From an uncultured Bacteroidales bacterium (GTDB taxonomy: Bacteria; Bacteroidota; Bacteroidia; Bacteroidales; UBA10428), in NCBI GenBank assembly GCA_963717995.1, contig CAVQXX010000015.1, forward strand, positions 91,871-155,870: DNA of 64,000 nucleotides. The letters are read 5' to 3'. The number at the start of each line of letters is the position of its first letter. Position 1 is the stretch's first letter. Both the position numbers and the translations under genes were made by a program. Of this stretch, positions 47,896 through 58,205 are shown one piece after another. The notes under the pieces were generated by a model. It was not told where the DNA came from. It was given only the letters and a program-made list of their open reading frames with translations, and did not search any database.

Positions 47896-49095
47896 TCAAA
47901 GCAGAAATTTCAAACACACAGGAGAAGGAATAATGGTTTCAAGGCCTGTATCCTCCAATCTTCCTGTTTCCTGATCAATCCTGAATGTAACAATATTTCC
48001 GGTATCCTGGTTGGCAACAAGCAGGAACTTTCCTGTGGGATCGATGATGAAATTCCTGGGTGTTTTTCCTTTTACCGGCTGATGGCCAACGAGTGTTAAT
48101 TTACCCGTTTGCTGATCAACCTTATAAATAGCAAGATTATTGACTTTGGCCCGGTTGGAAGCATAAAGGAATTTTCCTGAAGGCGTCAGATGGATATCGG
48201 CACAGGAAGCGTCTGCTTTCAAACCCGGATCGAGCGTAGAGATGACCTGTATCCGTCTGAGAGCAACTGTTACAGAATCAACCTCCATTACTTCGATAGT
48301 TCCGTTCAGCTCATTAATCCCGTATGCCAGATTCATGGAAGGATGAAATGCCAGGTGCCTGGGTCCCGCCCCCGGCATGGTGGCATAATTATGTCCGGTA
48401 TTGATTAATTTACCAGTGGTAGTATTCAGTTTATAAATATAAATGGTATCTACTCCCAGATCACAGGAATAAATCAGATTGTTTGCCGGGTTTTGAAAAA
48501 TAAAATGTGCGTGGGCAGCATCCTGCCGTGGGGAAGATCCCTTCCCTGCATGCTGATGAACCATGGTGGCTTCGCCCAGTGACCCTGAATCCCTTACCGG
48601 TAAAACAGCAACGGTTCCGCTTCCGTAATTGGCACACATAATCCATTTCCTTGTTTTATCCAATGAAATATAACAGGGATAATTTCCCTGCGATGATACT
48701 GTATTTATTAAAACCATTTGTCGGCCGTCGCTCAAAAGCCTGAAAGCACTGATTGATCCACCCGGTTTATCCCTGCTTCCGGTTTCATTTACGGCATATA
48801 ACATGTTATTTTCATTATCCGTAACCATGTAGGAAGGATTTACGGTATGCGGACTGCTGTTTATATAGGTAAGTTTGCCACTTTTGGTATTCAGCTCGTA
48901 AACGTAAATGCCCGTCGCTTTTCCGACCGTAAGATCTTCCGTTTCAGTATAGGTACCAACGTACATAATTATTAACGAGTCCAGTTTTAATGAATCATCA
49001 GATCCTGCAAGCACAGCAGAACGAACGCCCGGCTTGCAACCTGTCATGGAAAGTATGGCCAGGGATAAATATAACAGAATACGTTTGGCTTTCAT
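47896..49095 (-). CDS. Lipoprotein, lactonase family 7-bladed beta-propeller (6-phosphogluconolactonase-like)
   Basis: The ATG at 49095 gives a lipoprotein signal (..LAILSMTGC). Repeated propeller-blade pattern, ..GAGPRHLAFHP.., ..PRNFIIDPTGKFLLVANQ... The 44-codon extension in the ORF track would overlap the sigma-factor gene. Confidence 0.75.
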   Translation of the reverse strand: MKAKRILLYLSLAILSMTGCKPGVRSAVLAGSDDSLKLDSLIIMYVGTYTETEDLTVGKATGIYVYELNTKSGKLTYINSSPHTVNPSYMVTDNENNMLYAVNETGSRDKPGGSISAFRLLSDGRQMVLINTVSSQGNYPCYISLDKTRKWIMCANYGSGTVAVLPVRDSGSLGEATMVHQHAGKGSSPRQDAAHAHFIFQNPANNLIYSCDLGVDTIYIYKLNTTTGKLINTGHNYATMPGAGPRHLAFHPSMNLAYGINELNGTIEVMEVDSVTVALRRIQVISTLDPGLKADASCADIHLTPSGKFLYASNRAKVNNLAIYKVDQQTGKLTLVGHQPVKGKTPRNFIIDPTGKFLLVANQDTGNIVTFRIDQETGRLEDTGLETIIPSPVCLKFLL

Positions 49096-49122
49096 ATGTC
49101 CGATAGGATAAAAGGATTGCCA

Positions 49123-49130
49123 CAAAGATA
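49123..49130 (-). promoter_or_regulatory. Candidate -7 box upstream of the lactonase-family gene
   Basis: Plus-strand caaagata (minus-strand tatctttg), 28 nt upstream of the start at 49095. Confidence 0.4.
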
Positions 49131-49220
49131 GGAAAAATAAAATGGCCCGGTTTTTACATCTTTTGTGAATAAAAGTATAATTTAACCTGTTAATTTTACA
49201 CAGACACCAGGCGATATCTG

Positions 49221-49796
49221 ATGACATCGGAAAATAAGAACAATGAGCGGAATGCGACTATTCCCATAATGACCCTTGACAACTTCGAGGCATTGTTCAA
49301 ACAATACTATGCACCGCTTGTTGTTTATGCCTGCAAGTATTTACCGGAAAAGGATGCAGCGCGTGAGATTGTACAGGATTTTTTTGTGAAACTATATGAA
49401 AAACGGTCCTCACTTACCATCGATACTTCCCTGAAATCATATTTGTACCGTTCGGTTTATAACGCATGCATCAATTATATCAATCAGCGGAGTATACAGG
49501 ACAAACATATCAGAAACATCGATCTGGAAAGAAATGTTGAAGAAAATCTTGAAAACGAGATTAACAGTGTGGAATTACAGAACCGGATATTTAATCTCAT
49601 TGAAGCCCTCCCTCCCAAATGCAAGAAAATTTTTAAAATGAACCGGCTCGAGGGCATGAAAAATGAAGAAATAGCTGTTTCACTTCATCTTTCAAAAAGA
49701 ACAGTTGAAACACAGATTAGTAAGGCTTTGAAAATTTTGAGGAATAAATTATCAGATTATAATCTGGATACAGGTACAAATCAGGCCTCAATCTGA
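49221..49796 (+). CDS. ECF (sigma-70 family, group 4) RNA polymerase sigma factor
   Basis: Region 2 (..FEALFKQYYAPLVVYACKYL..AREIVQDFF..) and region 4 HTH (..EGMKNEEIAVSLHLSKRTVETQISKALKIL..). Start could be the ATG at 49269. Confidence 0.85.
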   Translation: MTSENKNNERNATIPIMTLDNFEALFKQYYAPLVVYACKYLPEKDAAREIVQDFFVKLYEKRSSLTIDTSLKSYLYRSVYNACINYINQRSIQDKHIRNIDLERNVEENLENEINSVELQNRIFNLIEALPPKCKKIFKMNRLEGMKNEEIAVSLHLSKRTVETQISKALKILRNKLSDYNLDTGTNQASI

Positions 49797-49935
49797 AATG
49801 TGAATAAGTTGTTGGTAAAAGTATTTACTATATCATACCAACTGATTGTTAATTATTTATGATTTTAAAATCAGCATATATAAATGAAGGAATAAGTGAA
49901 CTTGTAAACTTAAATGTCATATAAACGATTTTAGT

Positions 49936-50922
49936 ATGGATTTAACGAACATGCCTATTAAACTATTTTTAAAAAAACTAATCCTTGAAACCGACCTTCG
50001 CGAGGAGCAGAGGTTTAATGACCTGATGGCAGGTGATACCCGGAAAATGGAAGAATTCAAAAGAATTGAAAAAATCTGGCAAGAGTCTGGTAAGATAGGG
50101 TTGTTTAAACAAATTGACACTGATTCTGACTGGGAATTGGTAAGGTCTCGCATCAGGATTCCACTAACACAGAAATATCGACAGATTCCTGCATATAGTT
50201 ATGCCTTGCGTATTGCTGCAGTCATCATTATTGCTTCCGGACTTTCCACCGGTATTTATAAGACAATCACTTTTGTCAACCGCGAAAAACCGGCTGGATA
50301 CGTATCTGTTGCAGCGGCTGTTAATCCCCGAAATATCCACCTTCCCGATGGTTCTGTTGTAACGTTGAAAGGCGGATCGGCATTGACCTATCGTTCAGAT
50401 TACGGTAATGCAGCACGGGAAGTGATATTAAACGGAGAAGCGCTTTTTGAAGTAGTTCCTGACAAGGTTCATCCATTTAAGGTTTATACAGGCGAATCGG
50501 TAGTTATTGTTACCGGTACGCGTTTTAGTGTGCGTGAGGAAAAGGGACTTGTAAAAGTTTCAGTTTTAAGTGGGAATGTTATCCTTTCAAATACAGGTGA
50601 GCATTCAAAACAGATAAGGATAGCTGCCAATCAGAGTGGTTATCTGCTTCCGGATCATAATCTGAAAATTGAAAATAAAATTGAGGTTAATGAACTTTCA
50701 TGGGAATCGGGCCACCTTATATTCCATGAAACGCCCATTGACACTGCATTGATCGACATTGCCAGGCATTTCAGAAAAGACCTTGTCATTGAGACTGAAA
50801 TAGAAGAAGATATTACTGCTGAATTCCAGGACCAACCTCTGAATGAGATCCTGGGTGAAATTAGGTTGGTAGCAGACCTGAAATTCGATACCACAGGAAC
50901 AGCACTCATTGTCAGAAAGTAA
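49936..50922 (+). CDS. FecR-family anti-sigma factor (FecR plus DUF4974-like C-terminus)
   Basis: 328 aa; single TM helix (..LRIAAVIIIASGL..); FecR core ..GEALFEVVPDKVHPFKVYTGESVVIVTGTRFSV..; C-terminal ..FQDQPLNEILGEIRLVADLKF... Confidence 0.85.
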   Translation: MDLTNMPIKLFLKKLILETDLREEQRFNDLMAGDTRKMEEFKRIEKIWQESGKIGLFKQIDTDSDWELVRSRIRIPLTQKYRQIPAYSYALRIAAVIIIASGLSTGIYKTITFVNREKPAGYVSVAAAVNPRNIHLPDGSVVTLKGGSALTYRSDYGNAAREVILNGEALFEVVPDKVHPFKVYTGESVVIVTGTRFSVREEKGLVKVSVLSGNVILSNTGEHSKQIRIAANQSGYLLPDHNLKIENKIEVNELSWESGHLIFHETPIDTALIDIARHFRKDLVIETEIEEDITAEFQDQPLNEILGEIRLVADLKFDTTGTALIVRK

Positions 50923-50932
50923 GTTCTAGCCG

Positions 50933-52573
50933 ATGAGTCTGCGGGAATCATACACTCGTTTACTTCCCGTCGTTTTCGCCCTGTTTCTTTTGTTCCCCGG
51001 AATTTCAGCACAAACACAGCTAGGGCTGCTCGACAAAGAGGTAAATTTATCCCGCACTACAGGGGAAATAGAAGAGTTGTTAAATGAAATAAGCCGAAAA
51101 GGCAAATTTTCCTTTACTTACACCTCCCAGATACAGGTTCACCGGTTGGCCTCCGTGCTTCAAAAAAAGCAGCTGATCCGAAACCATCTTGCCGATATAT
51201 TTCGCTTTGACAGTATTCAGATTATTGAACAGAACAATAAGATTCTGCTTATTCCCTTTCGCAGGAAGGTTTCACAGGTTGTTAGTTACAAGTCTGTGAG
51301 GGGACTTGTTATTGATAGCAAAACAAGGCACCCGCTTCCTTATTCAAATGTATTTCTGATTAACAAGAGTACAGGAACCATTTCAAATATGGGTGGCCGG
51401 TTTGAACTGAAAATTTCAGTTTCGGAACCAGATGATACACTGGGCGTGTCGTTCATTGGCTACAAACAGTATAAAGTGCCGGTTTCCTCTCTTGATACCG
51501 GCCTGATAATTGTTCGTTTATCCTCCAGGAAAGTCCAGATCAGAGAAGTTGTTGTAAAGCCATTGGATCCCATTTATATTCTTACCAAGGCAATTGAGGC
51601 TATTCCAAACAATTACGACAGAAAGCCTGCCGTGTTCACCGCTTTCTTCCGGGAATCCACACGACAGGATAATACCGATATATCCCTGTCTGAAGCGGTA
51701 ATAAACATTTTCAAGGAGTCCTATACTGCACTGAGGGATGATCAGATTAAGATTTTCAAAGGTAGAAAGGGCAGTAATACGGGTGAAAAGGAATTTGTGG
51801 ATTTTGTTGTACAGGGCGGTCTTTATAATACATTACAGCTCGACATTGTGAAAAACCTGCCTACATTCCTGGATGCGGATTATTTTGCACTGTATGAATA
51901 CAAGTTGGAGCGAATTATTACCCACTTTGACAAGCCAACCTATATCATTTCTTTTGACCAGCGCGAAGGAGTAAAATATCCGTGCTTCAAGGGAAGGGTG
52001 TACATTGATGTGGAATCGCTTGCCATTATCGGAGCGTCCTTTCAGTTAAGCGAGAAAGGAATGAGTTACGCCACCGGCATATATGTGAAAAAAACGCCCA
52101 AACGACTGGGGGTAAAGCCCATGAGTGCCAGGTATGAGGTTTTCTACAGGTCCTATCATGGCAAATGGAATCTCAGCAATGTGCGAAGTGATATCATGAT
52201 AAGGGTTCGCCGGAAAAAAAACAAGCAGCAGGACCGGTTCAATTCTGATTTCGAATCCACATCCGAATTTGTAATAACAAACAAGGATACTGCAAATATT
52301 GCACGATTCAGATTTGCGGAAATTTCAAAACCCCGGGATGTGCTTGTTGAACAGATTGGTGAAACCGATCAGGAATTCTGGGGGAGCGAGAATGTGATCA
52401 AACCCGAAGAACCCATTGAAAAAACCATTCTGAAGCTTGGCCGGAAAAGCAATATTTTTTCGGAACAGGAGATTGCCGCCATTAAAATAGAGGAGGAAAA
52501 AGATGCAGTGAAGTCAAAAGAGGAGAATGCATCAGACGAAGGGAATAAAGAAAATGATAACAGTCAGTATTAG
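50933..52573 (+). CDS. Secreted STN-domain plus CarboxypepD_reg-domain protein without TonB-dependent plug/barrel
   Basis: Signal peptide, then an STN-like segment (VNLSRTTGEIEELLNEISRKGKFSFTYTSQIQV..IQIIEQNNKILLIP). A carboxypeptidase-regulatory-like domain follows (VRGLVIDSKTRHPLPYSNVFLINKSTGTISNMGGRFEL..). The remaining ~340 aa are of unrecognised fold with an acidic/lysine-rich tail. At 546 aa the protein is far too short for a SusC/FecA barrel. Confidence 0.65.
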   Translation: MSLRESYTRLLPVVFALFLLFPGISAQTQLGLLDKEVNLSRTTGEIEELLNEISRKGKFSFTYTSQIQVHRLASVLQKKQLIRNHLADIFRFDSIQIIEQNNKILLIPFRRKVSQVVSYKSVRGLVIDSKTRHPLPYSNVFLINKSTGTISNMGGRFELKISVSEPDDTLGVSFIGYKQYKVPVSSLDTGLIIVRLSSRKVQIREVVVKPLDPIYILTKAIEAIPNNYDRKPAVFTAFFRESTRQDNTDISLSEAVINIFKESYTALRDDQIKIFKGRKGSNTGEKEFVDFVVQGGLYNTLQLDIVKNLPTFLDADYFALYEYKLERIITHFDKPTYIISFDQREGVKYPCFKGRVYIDVESLAIIGASFQLSEKGMSYATGIYVKKTPKRLGVKPMSARYEVFYRSYHGKWNLSNVRSDIMIRVRRKKNKQQDRFNSDFESTSEFVITNKDTANIARFRFAEISKPRDVLVEQIGETDQEFWGSENVIKPEEPIEKTILKLGRKSNIFSEQEIAAIKIEEEKDAVKSKEENASDEGNKENDNSQY

Positions 52574-52595
52574 TGTTGAAAAATAAATCATCGCT

Positions 52596-55172
52596 ATGGC
52601 AAAAAGAATTACGGGATTAATCTTACTCATCGTGCCGGGTGCACTTATTCTTATGTTATCAGGATTTGGCGATATAAAAGACAAGTCATTTCTCGATATA
52701 TTACAAGATAAACTTAACAGGTTTAACAGGGATTTCTATGCCGAAAAGGCATATCTGGTGACTGACAGATTTGCTTACCGACCGGGTGATGACATCTGGT
52801 TTCACGGTTTTGTTTCAACACAGGTTGGTTTGCCCAAAGATTCAGGCAGCCAGGACATGTTCGTTAAGTTCATGAATATGAAAGGAGAGGAAATTATTTT
52901 CAGGCGTTACCCTCTCGAAAATCACCAGGTCACCGGAAGGTTCCTCATTCCGCGTACTTCGATTCCTGGAAAATACTACCTGGTAGCCTATACGGGATGG
53001 ATGAAAAACCAACCTGTAAGAGATGTATTCAGAAAAGAAATCCTGGTGGGCAAATATTACGATAAGCGTTTCCAGGTGGACATATTGTATGACCGTAGTT
53101 TTTACTATGCAGGCGACTCAATGCATGCCAATATACGGCTGATTGATCCGGCAGGAAAACCTATAGGCGAAACCGGATTTGTTTATACCCTTGGATCATT
53201 CAACCGGGACTTAATAAAAGAAAACGGCAAAACAACCCAGCAGGGGGTATTTGAGCTCAAATGCCAGGTTCCCTCCACGGATGATATTCTTATACTCAAA
53301 ATAGAATTGAAAAGCAGGAAAATTTCAGGTGAGTATTCACTTATAATTCCTGCCGCCACTTCTGATCCCGAAATTACCTTTCACTCCGAGGATGGAAATG
53401 TCGTGGCCGGACTTACAAACGTTATGGCTTTCCATTCCCAAACTCATTATGGGATGCCGGTAAGTATTCTGGGTGAGATCATTGATCGTAAAGGTGATGT
53501 ATTGCAGGCTGTGCAATCGAATAACAAGGGTATGGGCTCTTTTACCTATAGGCCTTCTGAAGATTCTGCATTTCTCAGAATTCTGAAACCGGCAGGCGTA
53601 TCCCGCCAGTTTCCGCTTCCCCTGGCATCAACCAGGGGAGTGATAATTCATCTTCGTAAAGCGGATAAGGATACGGTATGGTGCACATTGCTCTCAACAC
53701 AGGGTAATACCGATTCCGTTTTTTATTGGGTAGCCTTGCTGAACAGGCGTATTATTTGGAGCAAAGTCACTGATAGAAAAGCACATGATGTTAAAATACC
53801 ATTGAAGGGTTCTGGTACCGGTATAATGCAGGTATCCGTCTTTAATCAGGATGAAAAATTACTGGCTGAACGGCTGATGCATATTTCCGGTGAAGATATG
53901 CTGAATGCCAAAACCGACAGGCAAACATACCAGAGCCGCCAGCGTGTAATCCTAACTATTGATTACCTGGGCAGGAGCAGTAAGGTTGAACTGGCGATGA
54001 CTATTTCATTGAAACAGTTGGCTTATAGCCCGCTGAACATTGGTTTTGAACAGGCTATTCATTCCTGCCCATACGACACACTTTCAAAATCGCCAGGTAT
54101 TTCGCAGCACATCTCCGATATAGAACTGATGGCTTCGGGTTATAAAGAGATATCCTGGAATCATCTGCTGAATAATAATTCACATGAACATGCATTTGTA
54201 AAACTTGATGGACTAACCGGAACCGTTATCGATAAAAAGGAGAATCCCGCCCAGCATGCAAAGGTAAGAGTCACCCATCTTCCAAATTTCCGTTTCTATG
54301 AAACGCAGAGCAATGAAAACGGATACTTCCAGGTATTGTTCGGTTCAGACGTGATTGATTTCAATTATCTGAAAATTGATGCATACGATGCATTAGGAAA
54401 AGTAAATCTGATCGCATCGGTAAATCAACTGTTTTCGAAAAAAATAAAGGAGGATATTATTCAAAATACTGGCAATCATGATAAGCAAAAGATATTCAAC
54501 ACAGCCTTCTATGGTGATCCGGATGTAATTTATTCACTTCGTTACGGTTCGCGGAAGTATTTTAAATCAGAAAATGAATCCAGGAGGCGTTATGATCCAA
54601 AACTTTATTCAGATTATGCAGATGCCTTAGATATTATTCAGGAGCTGAAGCCCTTCCGTTTGAAAAATAACATGATCGTTTTTACAGATACAGCAGAAAA
54701 TATTCTGCCATCACATATTCAGGAGGGCGTGATCATTGTGATTAATGGTGCGATCAAGGGTACAAATGCGGATATATTGAGAGGAATGCTTCCTTCGGAT
54801 ATAACAAACATCAACATATCCGAATCGCAGATGGATGTTCACAGGTATACCCCTGTTAATTTTCAGGGTGTTATAGAATTAACTACCATTCAAAGCATGT
54901 ATAAATACAGGCAGCCGGGGATGCAAATGGGAATGGACATCCTGAATACAAGCAGGGAATTCTATTCTCCTGATTACGCCATTGAAACTGCGGTCAATAC
55001 CGATAATCGCAGAACATTGTACTGGAATCCACATATGACTATTACGCAAGGCTTGCCGGCACTCATTACATTTTATACATCCGATGTGAAAGGGATTTAT
55101 TATGGCAAGATAGAAGGAATGGATGCGGAAGGCCAACCGGTTCAGGATGAATTTACGATTGTTGTGGAATGA
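52596..55172 (+). CDS. Membrane-anchored MG2 (alpha-2-macroglobulin-like) repeat protein with CarboxypepD_reg-like and plug-like segments
   Basis: N-terminal TM/signal anchor. MG2-type motifs TDRFAYRPGDDIWFHGFV and TDRQTYQSRQRVILTI. A later CarboxypepD_reg-like unit (GTVIDKKENPAQHAKVRV..NENGYFQV). A degenerate plug-like stretch (VIIVINGAIKG..LPSDITNINI..FQGVIELTT). Confidence 0.55.
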   Translation: MAKRITGLILLIVPGALILMLSGFGDIKDKSFLDILQDKLNRFNRDFYAEKAYLVTDRFAYRPGDDIWFHGFVSTQVGLPKDSGSQDMFVKFMNMKGEEIIFRRYPLENHQVTGRFLIPRTSIPGKYYLVAYTGWMKNQPVRDVFRKEILVGKYYDKRFQVDILYDRSFYYAGDSMHANIRLIDPAGKPIGETGFVYTLGSFNRDLIKENGKTTQQGVFELKCQVPSTDDILILKIELKSRKISGEYSLIIPAATSDPEITFHSEDGNVVAGLTNVMAFHSQTHYGMPVSILGEIIDRKGDVLQAVQSNNKGMGSFTYRPSEDSAFLRILKPAGVSRQFPLPLASTRGVIIHLRKADKDTVWCTLLSTQGNTDSVFYWVALLNRRIIWSKVTDRKAHDVKIPLKGSGTGIMQVSVFNQDEKLLAERLMHISGEDMLNAKTDRQTYQSRQRVILTIDYLGRSSKVELAMTISLKQLAYSPLNIGFEQAIHSCPYDTLSKSPGISQHISDIELMASGYKEISWNHLLNNNSHEHAFVKLDGLTGTVIDKKENPAQHAKVRVTHLPNFRFYETQSNENGYFQVLFGSDVIDFNYLKIDAYDALGKVNLIASVNQLFSKKIKEDIIQNTGNHDKQKIFNTAFYGDPDVIYSLRYGSRKYFKSENESRRRYDPKLYSDYADALDIIQELKPFRLKNNMIVFTDTAENILPSHIQEGVIIVINGAIKGTNADILRGMLPSDITNINISESQMDVHRYTPVNFQGVIELTTIQSMYKYRQPGMQMGMDILNTSREFYSPDYAIETAVNTDNRRTLYWNPHMTITQGLPALITFYTSDVKGIYYGKIEGMDAEGQPVQDEFTIVVE

Positions 55173-56189
55173 CAGTTTCCTTTTTCCCTCTGTTCAACAA
55201 GAGGTATAATTAAGAGGGCTGCAAGACCAAGCACAAGATAAATCAGGTTTGTTGATGCATGTGCAATGAGGGCAAACACCTTGCCATCAGCCTTATCAAT
55301 ACCATAAATGAAAAGCGTTTCATAAACCATGAAATGCCAGGGTCCGATACCTCCCTGCACAGGTGCCAGCATTGCCAATCCCCCCATCAGAAAATGTGAT
55401 CATGCCTGTCTCCAATGAAAGATGTTCAGTTGGCGGATAAGCCTTGAAAATCACGTACAGCATGAAAAGCCACATGACGAAAATGAACAGGGTATGACCC
55501 ACAAAAATCCATTTATTTTCAAGCTTGGCAATCGATTTAATTCCTTCCAGGAAATTTTGCCTGATGAGCCTGATCTTCTTTACAAACAAATTCCCTCTAT
55601 CATGTTTATTCCGGTTATAATAGTGGTTAAAAAGCAGGAAAGCAAGAATAAAAAGAGCAATGGCTGAAAGGGCGAATAAGAGATTGCGGGTGGAGAAGAT
55701 ACGCAATGCATTGTCCCTGATATCGGCATGCGTATTGAAAAAAGTGGCAAAAACCCTGAGCTGGCTTATTATGATAACTATTGCCAGCAACATGAGTGTG
55801 ATCAGATCTGCAAGCCTTTCAACAAAAACGGTACCTGCCAGTTTGGCAAATGGGATTTTCTCATACCGGCTAAGTATAGTACACCTGAAAACTTCACCTG
55901 CTCTTGGCAACAGGAGATTGACAAAATAAAGCATTAAAACCGACAGGAAAGAATTGTATAATTTGGGATTGTATCCGAGAGGCCTTATCAGCATATTCCA
56001 TCTCATTGCCCTGCTGATCTGTGAAAGAACACTGAAAAAGATGGAAACCAGGATCCAGAAATAATTAAGATGCTGAAACGCACCCTTGTATTTATCCAAC
56101 GGCTCATCTTTATATACCCACCAGAATACGAAAATTCCAGCTCCCAGGAAAATGAAATATTTGAAAATATTCAGAAACTTTTTCCACAT
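55142..56189 (-). pseudogene. Flippase-like / lysylphosphatidylglycerol-synthase-TM-region (UPF0104) family membrane protein, frameshifted (possibly a sequencing indel)
   Basis: ORFs 55320-56189 and 55142-55387 join if one A is removed from the A4 run at 55391-55394 (..MITFLMGGLAMLAPVQGGIGPWHFMV..). Multi-pass membrane protein. The 3' end overlaps the convergent gene by 31 nt. Confidence 0.65.
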
Positions 56190-56294
56190 AATGTTGAAAT
56201 CAGGAAATAGCGTAATTTGCCCGCAAAGGTAATGAAATATGTTGATCTGGTTATAAAAACCCTGGGAAATACGGACAATAAGAAGGTAAAGAAA

Positions 56295-58205
56295 ATGTAT
56301 TATTTTTACCTGATGTATAAATCATGGCTGCTGCTGATATCGGCTTTCTTTGTTATATATTCAGAGGATATACTGGGACAAAATGAGCCAAAGGATACGC
56401 TGAGCGTTATTGAAGTTATAACTCAACGCAAGGACTCCATGGTTCGCAATCCGGGAGCATCTTTGGGAAAATGGAATCATCTCTCCGACAGCCTTTTTTT
56501 ATCAACTCGCCCAAACCGTTTCAATCGTGAATTAAACAACCTGCTGCAGAAATTTTATCATTCACACCCTAAAAACAAGAAAATACCGGTCACAAACGCT
56601 AACCTCACTGCATATGATGGATTGATTATCCGCAAAATTCAATTCAAAACACTAAATGTGTTTTCCGGCTCCATTGAGGATACGAGTTATGTTCCGTCTA
56701 ACTGGACTGAAAAGGCTGTAACTGCAATTCACTTTAATACACGTGAGAAGATCATCAGGAAAAATCTGCTTTTCCAGAAGGATGACAGGCTTGATGTTTT
56801 CCTGGTGGCTGAAAATGAACGAATGATCAGGGAACTACCCTATATCCGGGACGCAAGATTTCTTATAAATACTATTCCGGGATCGCCTGATTCAATAGAT
56901 ATAATTTTGCTGACGAAAGACCTGATCCCACTCGGTTTCAGTGCTGAACTCTCCAGGCCGGATGCAGGAAATGCGAGTATCGGATATTATAACATATTTG
57001 GGTATGGACACCAGTTTGAAACCACGACCTATTGGGACGGAAGGCATACGCCATTTTTAGGGTTTAAACTCCACTATGGGATTCCTAATATACAAGGTAC
57101 ATATATCTCATCAGACCTGGAATACACCCACCGCTGGAATACCGATATGAGCAGGATACGGTTGGAACGCAATTTCAGGACTGTTGGCATAAAATATGCC
57201 GGTGCCGTTGAACTTACGAATGCTGATCTGCAGCGCGATCTTGTTTTACAGGATACAACAATAGATAATATTACCTGGAAATATACCAACTATGATTTCT
57301 GGGTAGGCAGATTATTTAGTGTGAAAAAAGGAAATACTGCAGGAACCCGCAAGGGATTATTTCTTTCCGGCCGGGCCTTTTATAACTACAACAGAGAGAC
57401 ACCGCAAACGGAAGAACATAATTATTATGCATTTCAGGACAAAACCATGCTTCTTTTTTCCACAGGATACACATACCGTGGTTTTCGAAAAGATAATATG
57501 ATCTTTACATTCGACAAGATAGAGGACGTACCGTACGGTTATATGTTTGAAATAACATCGGGATATGAATGGGGACAATATGTTGGCAGACCCTACTTCG
57601 CGGCCAATATATCATTCGGCAAATACATGGCCCGTCATTACTTATATGGTCAGTTCGGATACGGGACTTTTGTCCATAATCATTCCCTTGAACAGGGAAC
57701 AATTCATTTGCAGTTAAAGGGTTTTTCAAATCTGAATACCTGGGGTATGTTTTTCCAAAACAGGAATTTTTTTACGTTTACTTATTTGAATGGAATAAAC
57801 AGGTTTAAGGATGAGTTTACCCGTTTGGAAAATAAGGGCGGCATACCCGGACTTTACAGCCCGTCCTTAAGGGGCAATGAAAAATTTGTTCTGAATCTGG
57901 AATCTGTTTTGTTCAGTCCTTACCGCTTGCTGGGATTTCGTTTTGCCTTTTTTGCATCAGTTGACCTTGGGTTCATCAAAACAGAAAATCTCAGTTTCTA
58001 TGAGTCAACGCCTTATTCAGGATTGGGACTTGGAATCCGGATCAGAAATGAACGACTTGTTTTTGATACATTTGAGATCAAGTTTTCAATCTATCCGGGA
58101 ATGCCTGCAGATGCAGATCCCATGTATATCAATGCAGGCAGCATTCCCCGCATCAGATCGAATGTTCTTTTTCCGGACAAACCAACGATACTGGAATATA
58201 ATTAG
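56295..58205 (+). CDS. Omp85/BamA-like outer-membrane beta-barrel protein with one POTRA-like domain
   Basis: POTRA-like segment (IIRKIQFKTLNVFSG..REKIIRKNLLFQKDDRLD..ENERMIRELPYIRDARFLI..IDIILLTKD). Omp85-type ..YYNIFGYGHQFETT.. and an alternating-hydrophobic barrel region. Start uncertain (ATG at 56295 or 56313; the ORF-track TTG is at 56217). Confidence 0.6.
   Translation: MYYFYLMYKSWLLLISAFFVIYSEDILGQNEPKDTLSVIEVITQRKDSMVRNPGASLGKWNHLSDSLFLSTRPNRFNRELNNLLQKFYHSHPKNKKIPVTNANLTAYDGLIIRKIQFKTLNVFSGSIEDTSYVPSNWTEKAVTAIHFNTREKIIRKNLLFQKDDRLDVFLVAENERMIRELPYIRDARFLINTIPGSPDSIDIILLTKDLIPLGFSAELSRPDAGNASIGYYNIFGYGHQFETTTYWDGRHTPFLGFKLHYGIPNIQGTYISSDLEYTHRWNTDMSRIRLERNFRTVGIKYAGAVELTNADLQRDLVLQDTTIDNITWKYTNYDFWVGRLFSVKKGNTAGTRKGLFLSGRAFYNYNRETPQTEEHNYYAFQDKTMLLFSTGYTYRGFRKDNMIFTFDKIEDVPYGYMFEITSGYEWGQYVGRPYFAANISFGKYMARHYLYGQFGYGTFVHNHSLEQGTIHLQLKGFSNLNTWGMFFQNRNFFTFTYLNGINRFKDEFTRLENKGGIPGLYSPSLRGNEKFVLNLESVLFSPYRLLGFRFAFFASVDLGFIKTENLSFYESTPYSGLGLGIRIRNERLVFDTFEIKFSIYPGMPADADPMYINAGSIPRIRSNVLFPDKPTILEYN

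Follow-up and report, generated by a model that had tools for sequence, protein, structure and literature searches.

A barrel-less protein with a predicted SusC-type signalling head encoded beside an ECF sigma factor/FecR pair in uncultured Bacteroidales

In cell-surface signalling, as described in PMC7186176, the FecR-type regulator has an STN-like C-terminal domain with which the STN domain of the transducer makes contact, and an account from Pseudomonas (PMC11637429) adds that this contact is present without signal and protects the anti-sigma factor from proteolysis. Here we describe four genes at positions 49221-55172 of a 64,000-nucleotide stretch of DNA (the window) from an uncultured Bacteroidales bacterium (GCA_963717995.1, contig CAVQXX010000015.1, positions 91,871 to 155,870 of the forward strand). 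The cluster has in common with FecI-FecR-FecA, and with the Bacteroides systems in which an extracytoplasmic function (ECF) sigma factor and an anti-sigma factor are joined to an STN-bearing SusC, an ECF sigma factor (gene 1), a FecR with a FecR_C domain (gene 2) and a next gene (gene 3) with an STN segment, an N-terminal extension (NTE) and a TonB-box-like strand. It differs from them in that gene 3 lacks the plug and the 22-strand barrel, and hence uptake. The gene 3 protein is predicted to be exported and soluble, it carries a putative LolA-like domain after the TonB-box-like strand, and its STN in the window copy is too diverged for Pfam.

A barrel-less receptor-like protein beside a sigma factor and FecR is already known, and VreA is the closest precedent. 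In the vreAIR operon (PUMA3) of Pseudomonas aeruginosa, VreA also has a signalling domain without a beta-barrel and is co-operonic with an ECF sigma factor and an anti-sigma factor of FecR-like type, according to PMC7035377. Judged by sequence, gene 3 and its context fit the same description, a barrel-less signalling domain beside an ECF sigma factor and FecR. The two differ in that vreA stands first in its operon and belongs to a different phylum, and we liken them by description and STN fold only. The passages on VreA in PMC7035377 mention neither an NTE nor an added C-terminal sensor domain, and they give no demonstrated signalling role for VreA itself.

The order sigma factor, anti-sigma factor, periplasmic protein (here with a putative LolA-like fold) is shared with rpoE-rseA-rseB and algU-mucA-mucB, and the Foldseek matches of gene 3 include RseB and MucB. 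There is no sequence similarity to either, however, and the fold likeness comes from a low-confidence model. RseA and MucA are not of the FecR type and RseB has neither STN nor NTE, whereas here the proposed docking module is of the cell-surface signalling type. The Dma system, as presented in PMC10927553, is also a non-nutrient, non-SusC ECF/anti-sigma arrangement in Bacteroidota and is connected with the condition of the outer membrane; there the anti-sigma factor itself reaches the outer membrane, whereas the cluster described here has an ordinary FecR plus a separate soluble partner.

Searching the literature, we found no description of an STN-NTE-TonB-box head joined to a LolA-like domain, of the size of this family, of its two cluster types or of its link to macroglobulin-like proteins. 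To our knowledge, Bacteroidota encode dozens of ECF sigma/FecR pairs, and inputs have been described only for those wired to SusC-type transporters; nor do we know of a sigma E-RseA-RseB system in Bacteroidota. A large family in which an STN signalling head sits on a soluble protein encoded beside FecR would be a class of ECF/FecR partner not described before. The input suggested by this arrangement is non-nutrient and intra-envelope, and the family is a candidate for the sensing of envelope or lipid stress. It is also a natural experiment on what STN, NTE and TonB-box modules do when detached from a barrel, and synteny and one gene fusion link it to thioester-less macroglobulin-like proteins.

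The features of genes 1 to 3 are as follows.

49221..49796, + strand: gene 1, ECF sigma factor, 191 aa, Bacteroidetes expansion family (TIGR02985)
49936..50922, + strand: gene 2, FecR-type anti-sigma factor, 328 aa (PF04773, PF16344)
50191-50259, + strand: gene 2 transmembrane helix, residues ~86-108, the sole hydrophobic stretch, read from the sequence
50329-50580, + strand: gene 2 FecR domain, residues 132-215 (PF04773, E 1e-17, 64.6 bits)
50716-50910, + strand: gene 2 STN-like FecR_C domain, residues 261-325 (PF16344, E 1e-5, 25.6 bits)
50933..52573, + strand: gene 3, 546 aa, with signal peptide, STN, SusC-type NTE, TonB-box-like strand, ~290-aa domain and acidic tail
50933..51010, + strand: gene 3 signal peptide, residues 1-26 (...GISA / QTQ), type I, without cysteine or lipobox
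51020..51262, + strand: gene 3 STN-like signalling domain, residues ~30-110 (AlphaFold2 (AF2) fold, Foldseek, family profile)
51293..51556, + strand: gene 3 SusC-type NTE (CarbopepD_reg_2), residues 121-208 (PF13715 at 122-208, E 3e-14)
51539..51562, + strand: gene 3 TonB-box-like strand IREVVVKP, residues 203-210, aligned with LDEVVVVG of SusC 8aa4; predicted function
51557..52447, + strand: gene 3 C-terminal domain, residues 209-505, putative LolA/RseB-like open beta-barrel (AF2 and Foldseek)
52448..52570, + strand: gene 3 C-terminal helix and acidic tail, residues 506-546, with the helix at 511-532; variable and charged

All four open reading frames (ORFs) at 49221-55172 are intact and lie in one direction on the + strand, with gaps of 139, 10 and 22 nt between genes 1-2, 2-3 and 3-4. 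The program-made ORF list reproduces the coordinates and all three gaps given in a preceding model-made reading of the letters alone (the sequence-only reading), and the domain matches agree with the order it proposed, namely ECF sigma factor, FecR anti-sigma factor, 546-aa exported protein and 858-aa protein (gene 4). Gene 1 is assigned to the TIGR02985 family of ECF sigma factors (173.3 bits against a cutoff of 126.4) and also matches Sigma70_r2 (PF04542) and Sigma70_r4_2 (PF08281). Gene 2, in which the PF04773 and PF16344 scores both exceed their cutoffs and a cytoplasmic N-terminal region is followed by one transmembrane segment, is by these features a FecR-type single-pass anti-sigma factor. 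Public collections hold exact copies of the proteins of genes 2, 3 and 4 without functional names.

A homology search with gene 3 gave more than 200 homologues at 56-96% identity, nearly all 530-550 aa long and drawn from many assemblies and sequencing platforms; the few that carry source names are called only "carboxypeptidase-like regulatory domain-containing protein". The family alignment is conserved over its full length, including all of the sequence after the NTE. Gene 3 has no Plug (PF07715) or TonB_dep_Rec (PF00593) match at E<=1, no Plug was seen among its relatives in the Pfam scan, and the SusC/RagA model TIGR04056 is matched at positions 2-83 of 981 and nowhere further. By these profiles gene 3 falls outside the definition of a TonB-dependent transducer, having neither the plug nor the 22-strand barrel. 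The sequence-only reading had seen no plug or 22-strand barrel in the ~340 aa after the head, which it described as ending in a charged tail, and the profile searches and the acidic C-terminus agree with it. Its proposal that the STN module has been uncoupled from a transporter and fused to a different sensor or scaffold is supported as to the architecture: a SusC-type head is joined to an unrelated domain, at a length kept in the homologues.

In the AF2 model of gene 3, residues 30-200 have a predicted local distance difference test (pLDDT) value of ~80-87, and the remainder lies at 55-70 with disordered stretches. The STN segment shows the beta-alpha-beta-beta-alpha-beta-beta pattern of STN domains, and Foldseek matches it to the FecA signalling domain 2d1u (prob 1.0, TMt 0.57). 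Among 90 relatives of the same architecture at 25-39% identity, 62 match PF07660 at the equivalent position (best E 3e-11), 19 match FecR_C and one matches the GspD N0 domain. A family profile over the whole STN segment matches PupA (2a02), several PilQ N0 domains (4ar0) and the C-terminal domain of a Bacteroides anti-sigma factor (4m0n), and no PDB entry besides STN-fold structures. The assignment of this segment as STN is supported at the level of family and fold, the window copy being too diverged for Pfam. An STN hidden Markov model (HMM) built from the gene 3 family also matches FecR C-termini at neighbouring loci, down to E 3e-5, and its recognition of both gene 3 and FecR fits a pairing of like folds.

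The NTE is close to that of SusCdex (9hfj, TMt 0.79 in Foldseek), and the NTE in the family profile matches SusC 8aa4 at E 7e-11. The TonB-box-like strand sits in a linker (residues 200-221, pLDDT <50). Across the 90 relatives, position 203 is I or L in 89, position 205 is E in 69, position 206 is V or I in 89 and position 208 is I or V in 88, and the pattern [IL]xE[VI][IV][IV] is kept in most of them; the functional TonB box of Bt1763 is VDEVVV (PMC7782687). Read from these alignments and models, gene 3 retains the complete periplasmic head of a SusC-type transducer, that is, STN, NTE and TonB-box-like strand. The order of the first two is STN then NTE in gene 3 and in all its relatives, opposite to the statement in PMC7782687 that the NTE precedes the STN in STN-bearing SusCs. 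The sequence-only reading held that the first ~200 residues look exactly like STN followed by CarboxypepD_reg. This is right for the NTE part; for the STN part it holds by family and fold and not by the Pfam score of the window copy. Its further suggestion, that the input is not TonB-dependent uptake, stands in so far as uptake is excluded, but IREVVVKP is kept at the place of the SusC TonB box.

The signal peptide is the sole hydrophobic segment of gene 3, the sole cysteine lies at position 351, and the A-Q cleavage junction is nearly invariant across the family. With a type I signal peptide and without a lipobox, a barrel or a type IX secretion tail, the protein is most likely periplasmic, and the label "trans-envelope" given to the module in the sequence-only reading is for the same reasons doubtful.

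In the model of the C-terminal domain (pLDDT 55-70), 10 long antiparallel strands come after a single helix. Foldseek matches it to DUF1329 (4z48), NE2245 (3buu), 3bk5, LolA3 of Porphyromonas gingivalis (9tp6), RseB and MucB with E 5e-6 to 1e-3; prob is ~1 for at least seven distinct entries of the LolA superfamily, with TM of only 0.2-0.33, and membrane barrels and GFP come far below the LolA folds. Weak matches to Pfam LolA_like (E 0.003-0.007) recur at equivalent positions in several relatives. The fold of this domain is quite probably LolA-like on the strength of these models. At E<=1e-3 its family comprises 1304 representative clusters (50% identity), of which 261 remain at E<=1e-30. Residues N227, R240, E241, E254, D304, G354 and W483 are invariant in the family, which also has the conserved motif FWGxxNxIxPEE.

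The domain also appears to be related to the N-terminal third of Pfam DUF5686 (PF18939), to judge from sub-threshold matches in 10 of the 90 relatives that cover profile positions ~120-256 of 669 and score 25-30 bits against a gathering cutoff of 39.2; gene 3 of the window has no DUF5686 match. As in gene 3, the DUF5686 proteins of Bacteroidota have CarbopepD_reg_2 first and then the domain to which these matches fall, whereas gene 3 spans no more than about a third of the profile's 669 positions, at its start, and the scores of the relatives are below gathering. A separate protein, P0197 (901 aa), has an N-terminal CarbopepD_reg_2 at 119-205 and two stretches matching the gene 3 C-terminal domain (best 595-858), and may carry two copies of it.

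Relatives of gene 3 were found in 45 species-representative genomes, all of them metagenome-assembled genomes (MAGs) of uncultured Bacteroidales or Bacteroidota. In a phmmer survey reaching down to 35% identity, all 40 loci whose upstream flank is long enough have the sigma, FecR and gene 3 genes side by side and in one direction, as the sequence-only reading would expect, and this order is beyond chance because it is kept across dozens of species-level genomes with differing flanks. Three findings had been named in advance as contrary to the sequence-only reading. Neither a plug and barrel nor a loss of gene order was found; as to the third, the head scores as STN through family and fold and not through the Pfam score of the window copy. 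Of the 42 loci whose downstream flank is available, 36 have gene 4 next after gene 3. The most distant group (L043-L048) lacks it, and in L048 an M49-like peptidase stands in its place.

A second cluster type was seen in relatives at ~30% identity and in 80 metagenome loci, and is complete in 55 loci. Here a paralogue consisting of NTE and C-terminal domain without STN is followed by the sigma gene, FecR and a protein with STN, NTE and C-terminal domain, and gene 4 is absent. In these other clades every STN-type gene with enough upstream flank has FecR before it (74 of the 82 loci L061-L142, plus L057 and L060). Altogether the order sigma, FecR, gene 3 recurs in 78 loci of other clades besides the 40 above. 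By contrast, no sigma or FecR gene lies near the STN-less P0370, nor near P0341, a 1325-aa fusion found on four contigs (e.g. L055 7001-10978) that joins an NTE and the gene 3 C-terminal domain to a complete, collinear gene 4-like protein (21% identity over 609 aa, E 6e-35). The conserved core is sigma factor, FecR and STN protein, and the presence of STN tracks adjacency to FecR. The simpler rule that STN-less proteins have no sigma gene nearby was discarded, since the second cluster type has an STN-less paralogue directly upstream of the sigma gene.

Some family members are altered by assembly or annotation. In L007 and L038 (MFD nanopore MAGs, 92-95% identity), genes 3 and 4 lie in frameshifted pieces, the window copies being intact, and assembly indels can thus mimic truncated proteins in this lineage. 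Entries of ~440 aa listed as STN-less (P0399-P0408 and similar) are STN-type proteins with miscalled start codons, and database entries of ~313-350 aa are often fragments of frameshifted genes (e.g. L060). With such miscalled starts and fragments, length-based counts of architectures in databases are unreliable.

We slightly favour, from domain content and gene order, a role of gene 3 as a periplasmic, RseB-like input protein that docks on FecR through its STN. In this mechanism gene 3 would replace the TonB-dependent transducer, and its STN would dock in the periplasm on FecR, at the STN-like C-terminal domain, and shield the anti-sigma factor from site-1 proteolysis, as described for Pseudomonas transducers. 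The LolA-like domain would bind a hydrophobic or amphipathic ligand, such as a mislocalised lipid, a lipoprotein or a lipopolysaccharide (LPS)-type molecule, or possibly a partner such as gene 4; binding would alter or release the contact, FecR would be degraded and the sigma factor freed. A comparable step is described for MucB, a LolA-fold protein that dissociates from MucA upon lipid binding, according to PMC7400510. Gene 4, 22 nt downstream and presumably co-transcribed, would stand outside the core switch and, co-expressed with it, would probably be either an output or a protein that acts as a physical partner within the periplasm. The signal is likely to be read from inside the envelope and not from nutrient uptake. 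A wider proposal, which we put forward only tentatively, is that the whole family is the Bacteroidota counterpart of RseB/MucB: a periplasmic sensor with a LolA fold that would respond to mislocalised lipid, lipoprotein or LPS and inform an ECF sigma factor of damage to the envelope, its STN-NTE-TonB-box head having been grafted from SusC onto a lipid-binding domain and plugging into FecR, with the thioester-less macroglobulin-like protein and the STN-less paralogues as effectors or co-sensors.

Several observations weigh against the docking model and the fold on which it draws. The window copy has no Pfam STN match (E<=1 with the full protein, E<=10 with residues 27-118). Pfam and PDB searches with its N-terminal domain, the latter by a profile of close homologues, gave only noise, such as vimentin and DUF6568. 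A profile of the C-terminal domain found no solved structure in PDB by sequence. The AF2 model of that domain is of low confidence and its Foldseek superpositions are poor (rmsd 12-18 A at the TM values given above), as would be expected from a weak model. R240, E241, E254 and D304, which are polar and invariant, might point to catalysis or to a specific ligand other than a lipid. The TonB-box-like motif kept in gene 3 is a hint of a role of TonB that the analogy with RseB leaves unexplained, the docking of gene 3 on FecR is a proposed contact, and the sigma gene appears to be driven by a housekeeping-type, TAnnTTTG-like promoter and not by a recognisable ECF promoter.

Other readings of gene 3 differ first in what kind of protein they take it to be. 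That it is a truncated or frameshifted SusC-like pseudogene, its plug and barrel hidden downstream by assembly indels, is scarcely credible. The assembly does have indels, the nearby LPG_synthase_TM gene being split at a C6 run, and the frameshifted copies of L007 and L038 affect genes 3 and 4 themselves; but the length of ~530-550 aa is constant in more than 200 homologues across platforms, the part beyond the NTE shows high conservation and makes up the family of 1304 clusters, the sequence downstream is a conserved 858-aa protein with MG domains and a model pTM of 0.80, and Plug and TonB_dep_Rec signals are lacking. The constant length, the conserved C-terminal part and the conserved gene 4 downstream effectively refute a broken SusC. 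It is very improbable, too, that the C-terminal domain forms, or docks into, a small beta-barrel of the outer membrane, making gene 3 a non-TonB surface receptor. Such a barrel would suit the ten long antiparallel strands and the relation to DUF5686, whose profile has ~400 further positions; a DUF5686 protein is also named in a paper on a Tannerella-related vesicle proteome (PMC10682907). It agrees poorly with strands rich in charged and invariant polar residues, with the lack of any hydrophobic segment besides the signal peptide, with the ~100 non-barrel residues after the domain, and with a Foldseek prob of 0.1 for NspA against ~1.0 for soluble LolA-type folds.

If gene 3 is the soluble protein that we describe, it might still not be the input. 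It could be an accessory or output protein like VreA, dispensable for activation of the sigma factor, with genes 3 and 4 as the main products of the regulon (for example in periplasmic lipid or protein handling) and FecR sensing something else directly. VreA is reported to be dispensable for activation of the sigma factor VreI in vitro and in vivo (PMC7035377, in its account of that system); genes 3 and 4 follow downstream within one operon after gaps of 10 and 22 nt, proteins like gene 4 and paralogues without STN occur outside sigma/FecR contexts, and in the second cluster type the candidate ECF promoter would drive the whole cluster, paralogue included. We nevertheless consider this rather unlikely: STN-bearing members are coupled to an upstream FecR in all ~118 informative loci, whereas the STN-less P0370 and P0341 are without FecR, and a pure output has no reason to keep a domain known only for contacting anti-sigma or secretin partners. 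Gene 3 could instead be a TonB-coupled periplasmic transducer, in which a TonB paralogue engages the TonB-box strand and force or occupancy there, perhaps with an inner-membrane-anchored gene 4, signals to FecR, so that the system would be TonB-dependent without transport. The conservation of [IL]xE[VI][IV][IV] at the SusC TonB-box position, in a flexible linker, speaks for this, as does the proposal that the NTE gives specificity for TonB paralogues (PMC7782687). The motif, however, lies inside the Pfam CarbopepD_reg_2 model and could be an inheritance or be kept because folding needs it, TonB would have neither plug nor barrel on which to act, and the cluster contains no TonB, ExbB or ExbD gene, which leaves this account distinctly unlikely.

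Gene 4 has the following features.

52596..55172, + strand: gene 4, 858 aa (AF2 pLDDT 82, pTM 0.80)
52602-52661, + strand: N-terminal hydrophobic helix, residues 3-22, predicted signal anchor
52743-54011, + strand: macroglobulin (MG) ring of ~five MG-type beta-sandwiches, residues 50-472 (AF2, Foldseek)
54213-54422, + strand: CarboxypepD_reg-like domain, residues 540-609 (Pfam at 540-580, E 7e-5)
54624-54899, + strand: helical or mixed alpha/beta "plug-like" region, residues 677-768 (AF2 model)
55014-55166, + strand: C-terminal beta-sandwich, residues 807-857 (AF2 model)

The MG2 domain of gene 4 is matched at residues 51-135 (E 3e-11) and MG4 weakly. Among 37 relatives, MG2 is present in all 37 and CarboxypepD_reg in 33, so that the MG2-type motifs and the additional CarboxypepD_reg-like unit noticed in the sequence-only reading are both recovered. 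Foldseek matches gene 4 to complement C4/C3/C5, TEP1, E. coli ECAM and CD109 (E 1e-22 to 1e-16), with a TMt of ~0.48 over ~470 columns against the C3c beta chain. No thioester domain (PF07678 and PF00207 unmatched), CxEQ motif or bait region was found in gene 4, and A2M_BRD is matched by one of the 37 relatives. On the basis of its model, gene 4 is an alpha-2-macroglobulin-like MG ring without thioester. Like the bacterial alpha-2-macroglobulins (ECAM/YfhM, Salmonella A2M), and set beside complement C3/C4/C5, it has an N-terminal hydrophobic helix and an MG ring. It differs from them in having half the length, in lacking thioester, CxEQ and bait region, and in ending with a CarboxypepD_reg-like domain, a helical or mixed region and a beta-sandwich with no PDB relatives by sequence search.

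The "degenerate plug-like stretch" that had been read into this protein could not be confirmed: Plug is matched by none of the 37 relatives and a profile of residues 664-858 finds nothing in PDB, the sole Plug signal being a sub-threshold one (E 0.0018) in the homologous part of the fused relative P0341. The idea that the MG2 protein is a partner of gene 3 fares better in part. The fusion P0341 joins the two families, but two clades, the most distant one and a second, large one, lack gene 4, which is not a fixed partner; relatives of gene 4 at 20-22% identity do not adjoin a sigma or FecR gene. Gene 4 is, on comparison of these loci, a clade-specific addition tied by fusion to the LolA-like domain family.

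The regions flanking the cluster contain the following features.

49096..49220, no strand assigned: divergent promoter region, bounded by the lactonase gene (- strand) and the sigma gene; putative promoter assignments
55142..56189, - strand: LPG_synthase_TM (flippase-like) gene, convergent, as two overlapping ORFs (55142-55387 and 55320-56189) beside a C6 run
56217-58205, + strand: 662-aa ORF, syntenic with the cassette across the window clade

The divergent region is 125 nt long once the start of the lactonase gene is placed at 49095. That gene, annotated as an ORF at 47896-49227 (- strand) that overlaps the sigma start codon, encodes a 7-bladed beta-propeller lactonase (E 5e-113), and its true start is probably the internal methionine at 49095 (MKAKRILLY..., with a lipoprotein-like signal). 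From k-mer counts, and from the upstream regions of 41 loci aligned with MAFFT, we found a conserved footprint, TATAATTTAACC, at 49176-49187, which is present once in the whole window; the equivalent position in relatives reads TAGATTTG. The promoter 5' of the sigma gene looks housekeeping-like, of the TAnnTTTG type, and for this reason the operon may be expressed constitutively and regulated after translation. The element CAAAGATA at ~49122-49129 is the reverse complement of TATCTTTG, which we take as a putative Bacteroides TAnnTTTG-type -7 box serving the divergent gene. No ECF-type promoter was found 5' of the window sigma gene, only the housekeeping-like TAnnTTTG-type footprint; an Rfam scan of 48800-55600 gave no RNA element, and a scan for sigma-70 promoters and terminators gave counts equal to those in shuffled sequence.

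In the second cluster type, the bipartite motif TAGGGTA-N15-GGTC(A/T)TA occurs once per locus in 47 loci (L057, L062-L142; e.g. L097 1810-1838), with a spacing of 15 nt in 44 of them, and lies ~100 nt 5' of the STN-less paralogue with which the cluster begins. The motif is a good candidate for an ECF-dependent promoter of this cluster type; the window does not contain its form TAGGGTA-N15-GGTCATA. In L061 and L062 (6553-7603, - strand), and also in L060, the STN-type gene is followed directly 3' by a convergent OmpA_C-like gene (337 aa).

No Pfam match and no PDB sequence match was found for the 662-aa neighbour of the window cluster. The orthologue of the LPG_synthase_TM gene in L002 is intact (352 aa), and the split of the window copy at the C6 run is probably a homopolymer indel of the assembly and not a true pseudogene, in keeping with the earlier remark that this assembly carries indels. 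The window clade has a convergent LPG_synthase_TM gene 3' of the cassette, and so do the distant loci L039, L041, L043-L045 and L051. This neighbour is kept even where distant loci are without gene 4 and have different flanks. The adjacency could reflect a functional tie to the handling of membrane lipids, or merely old synteny.

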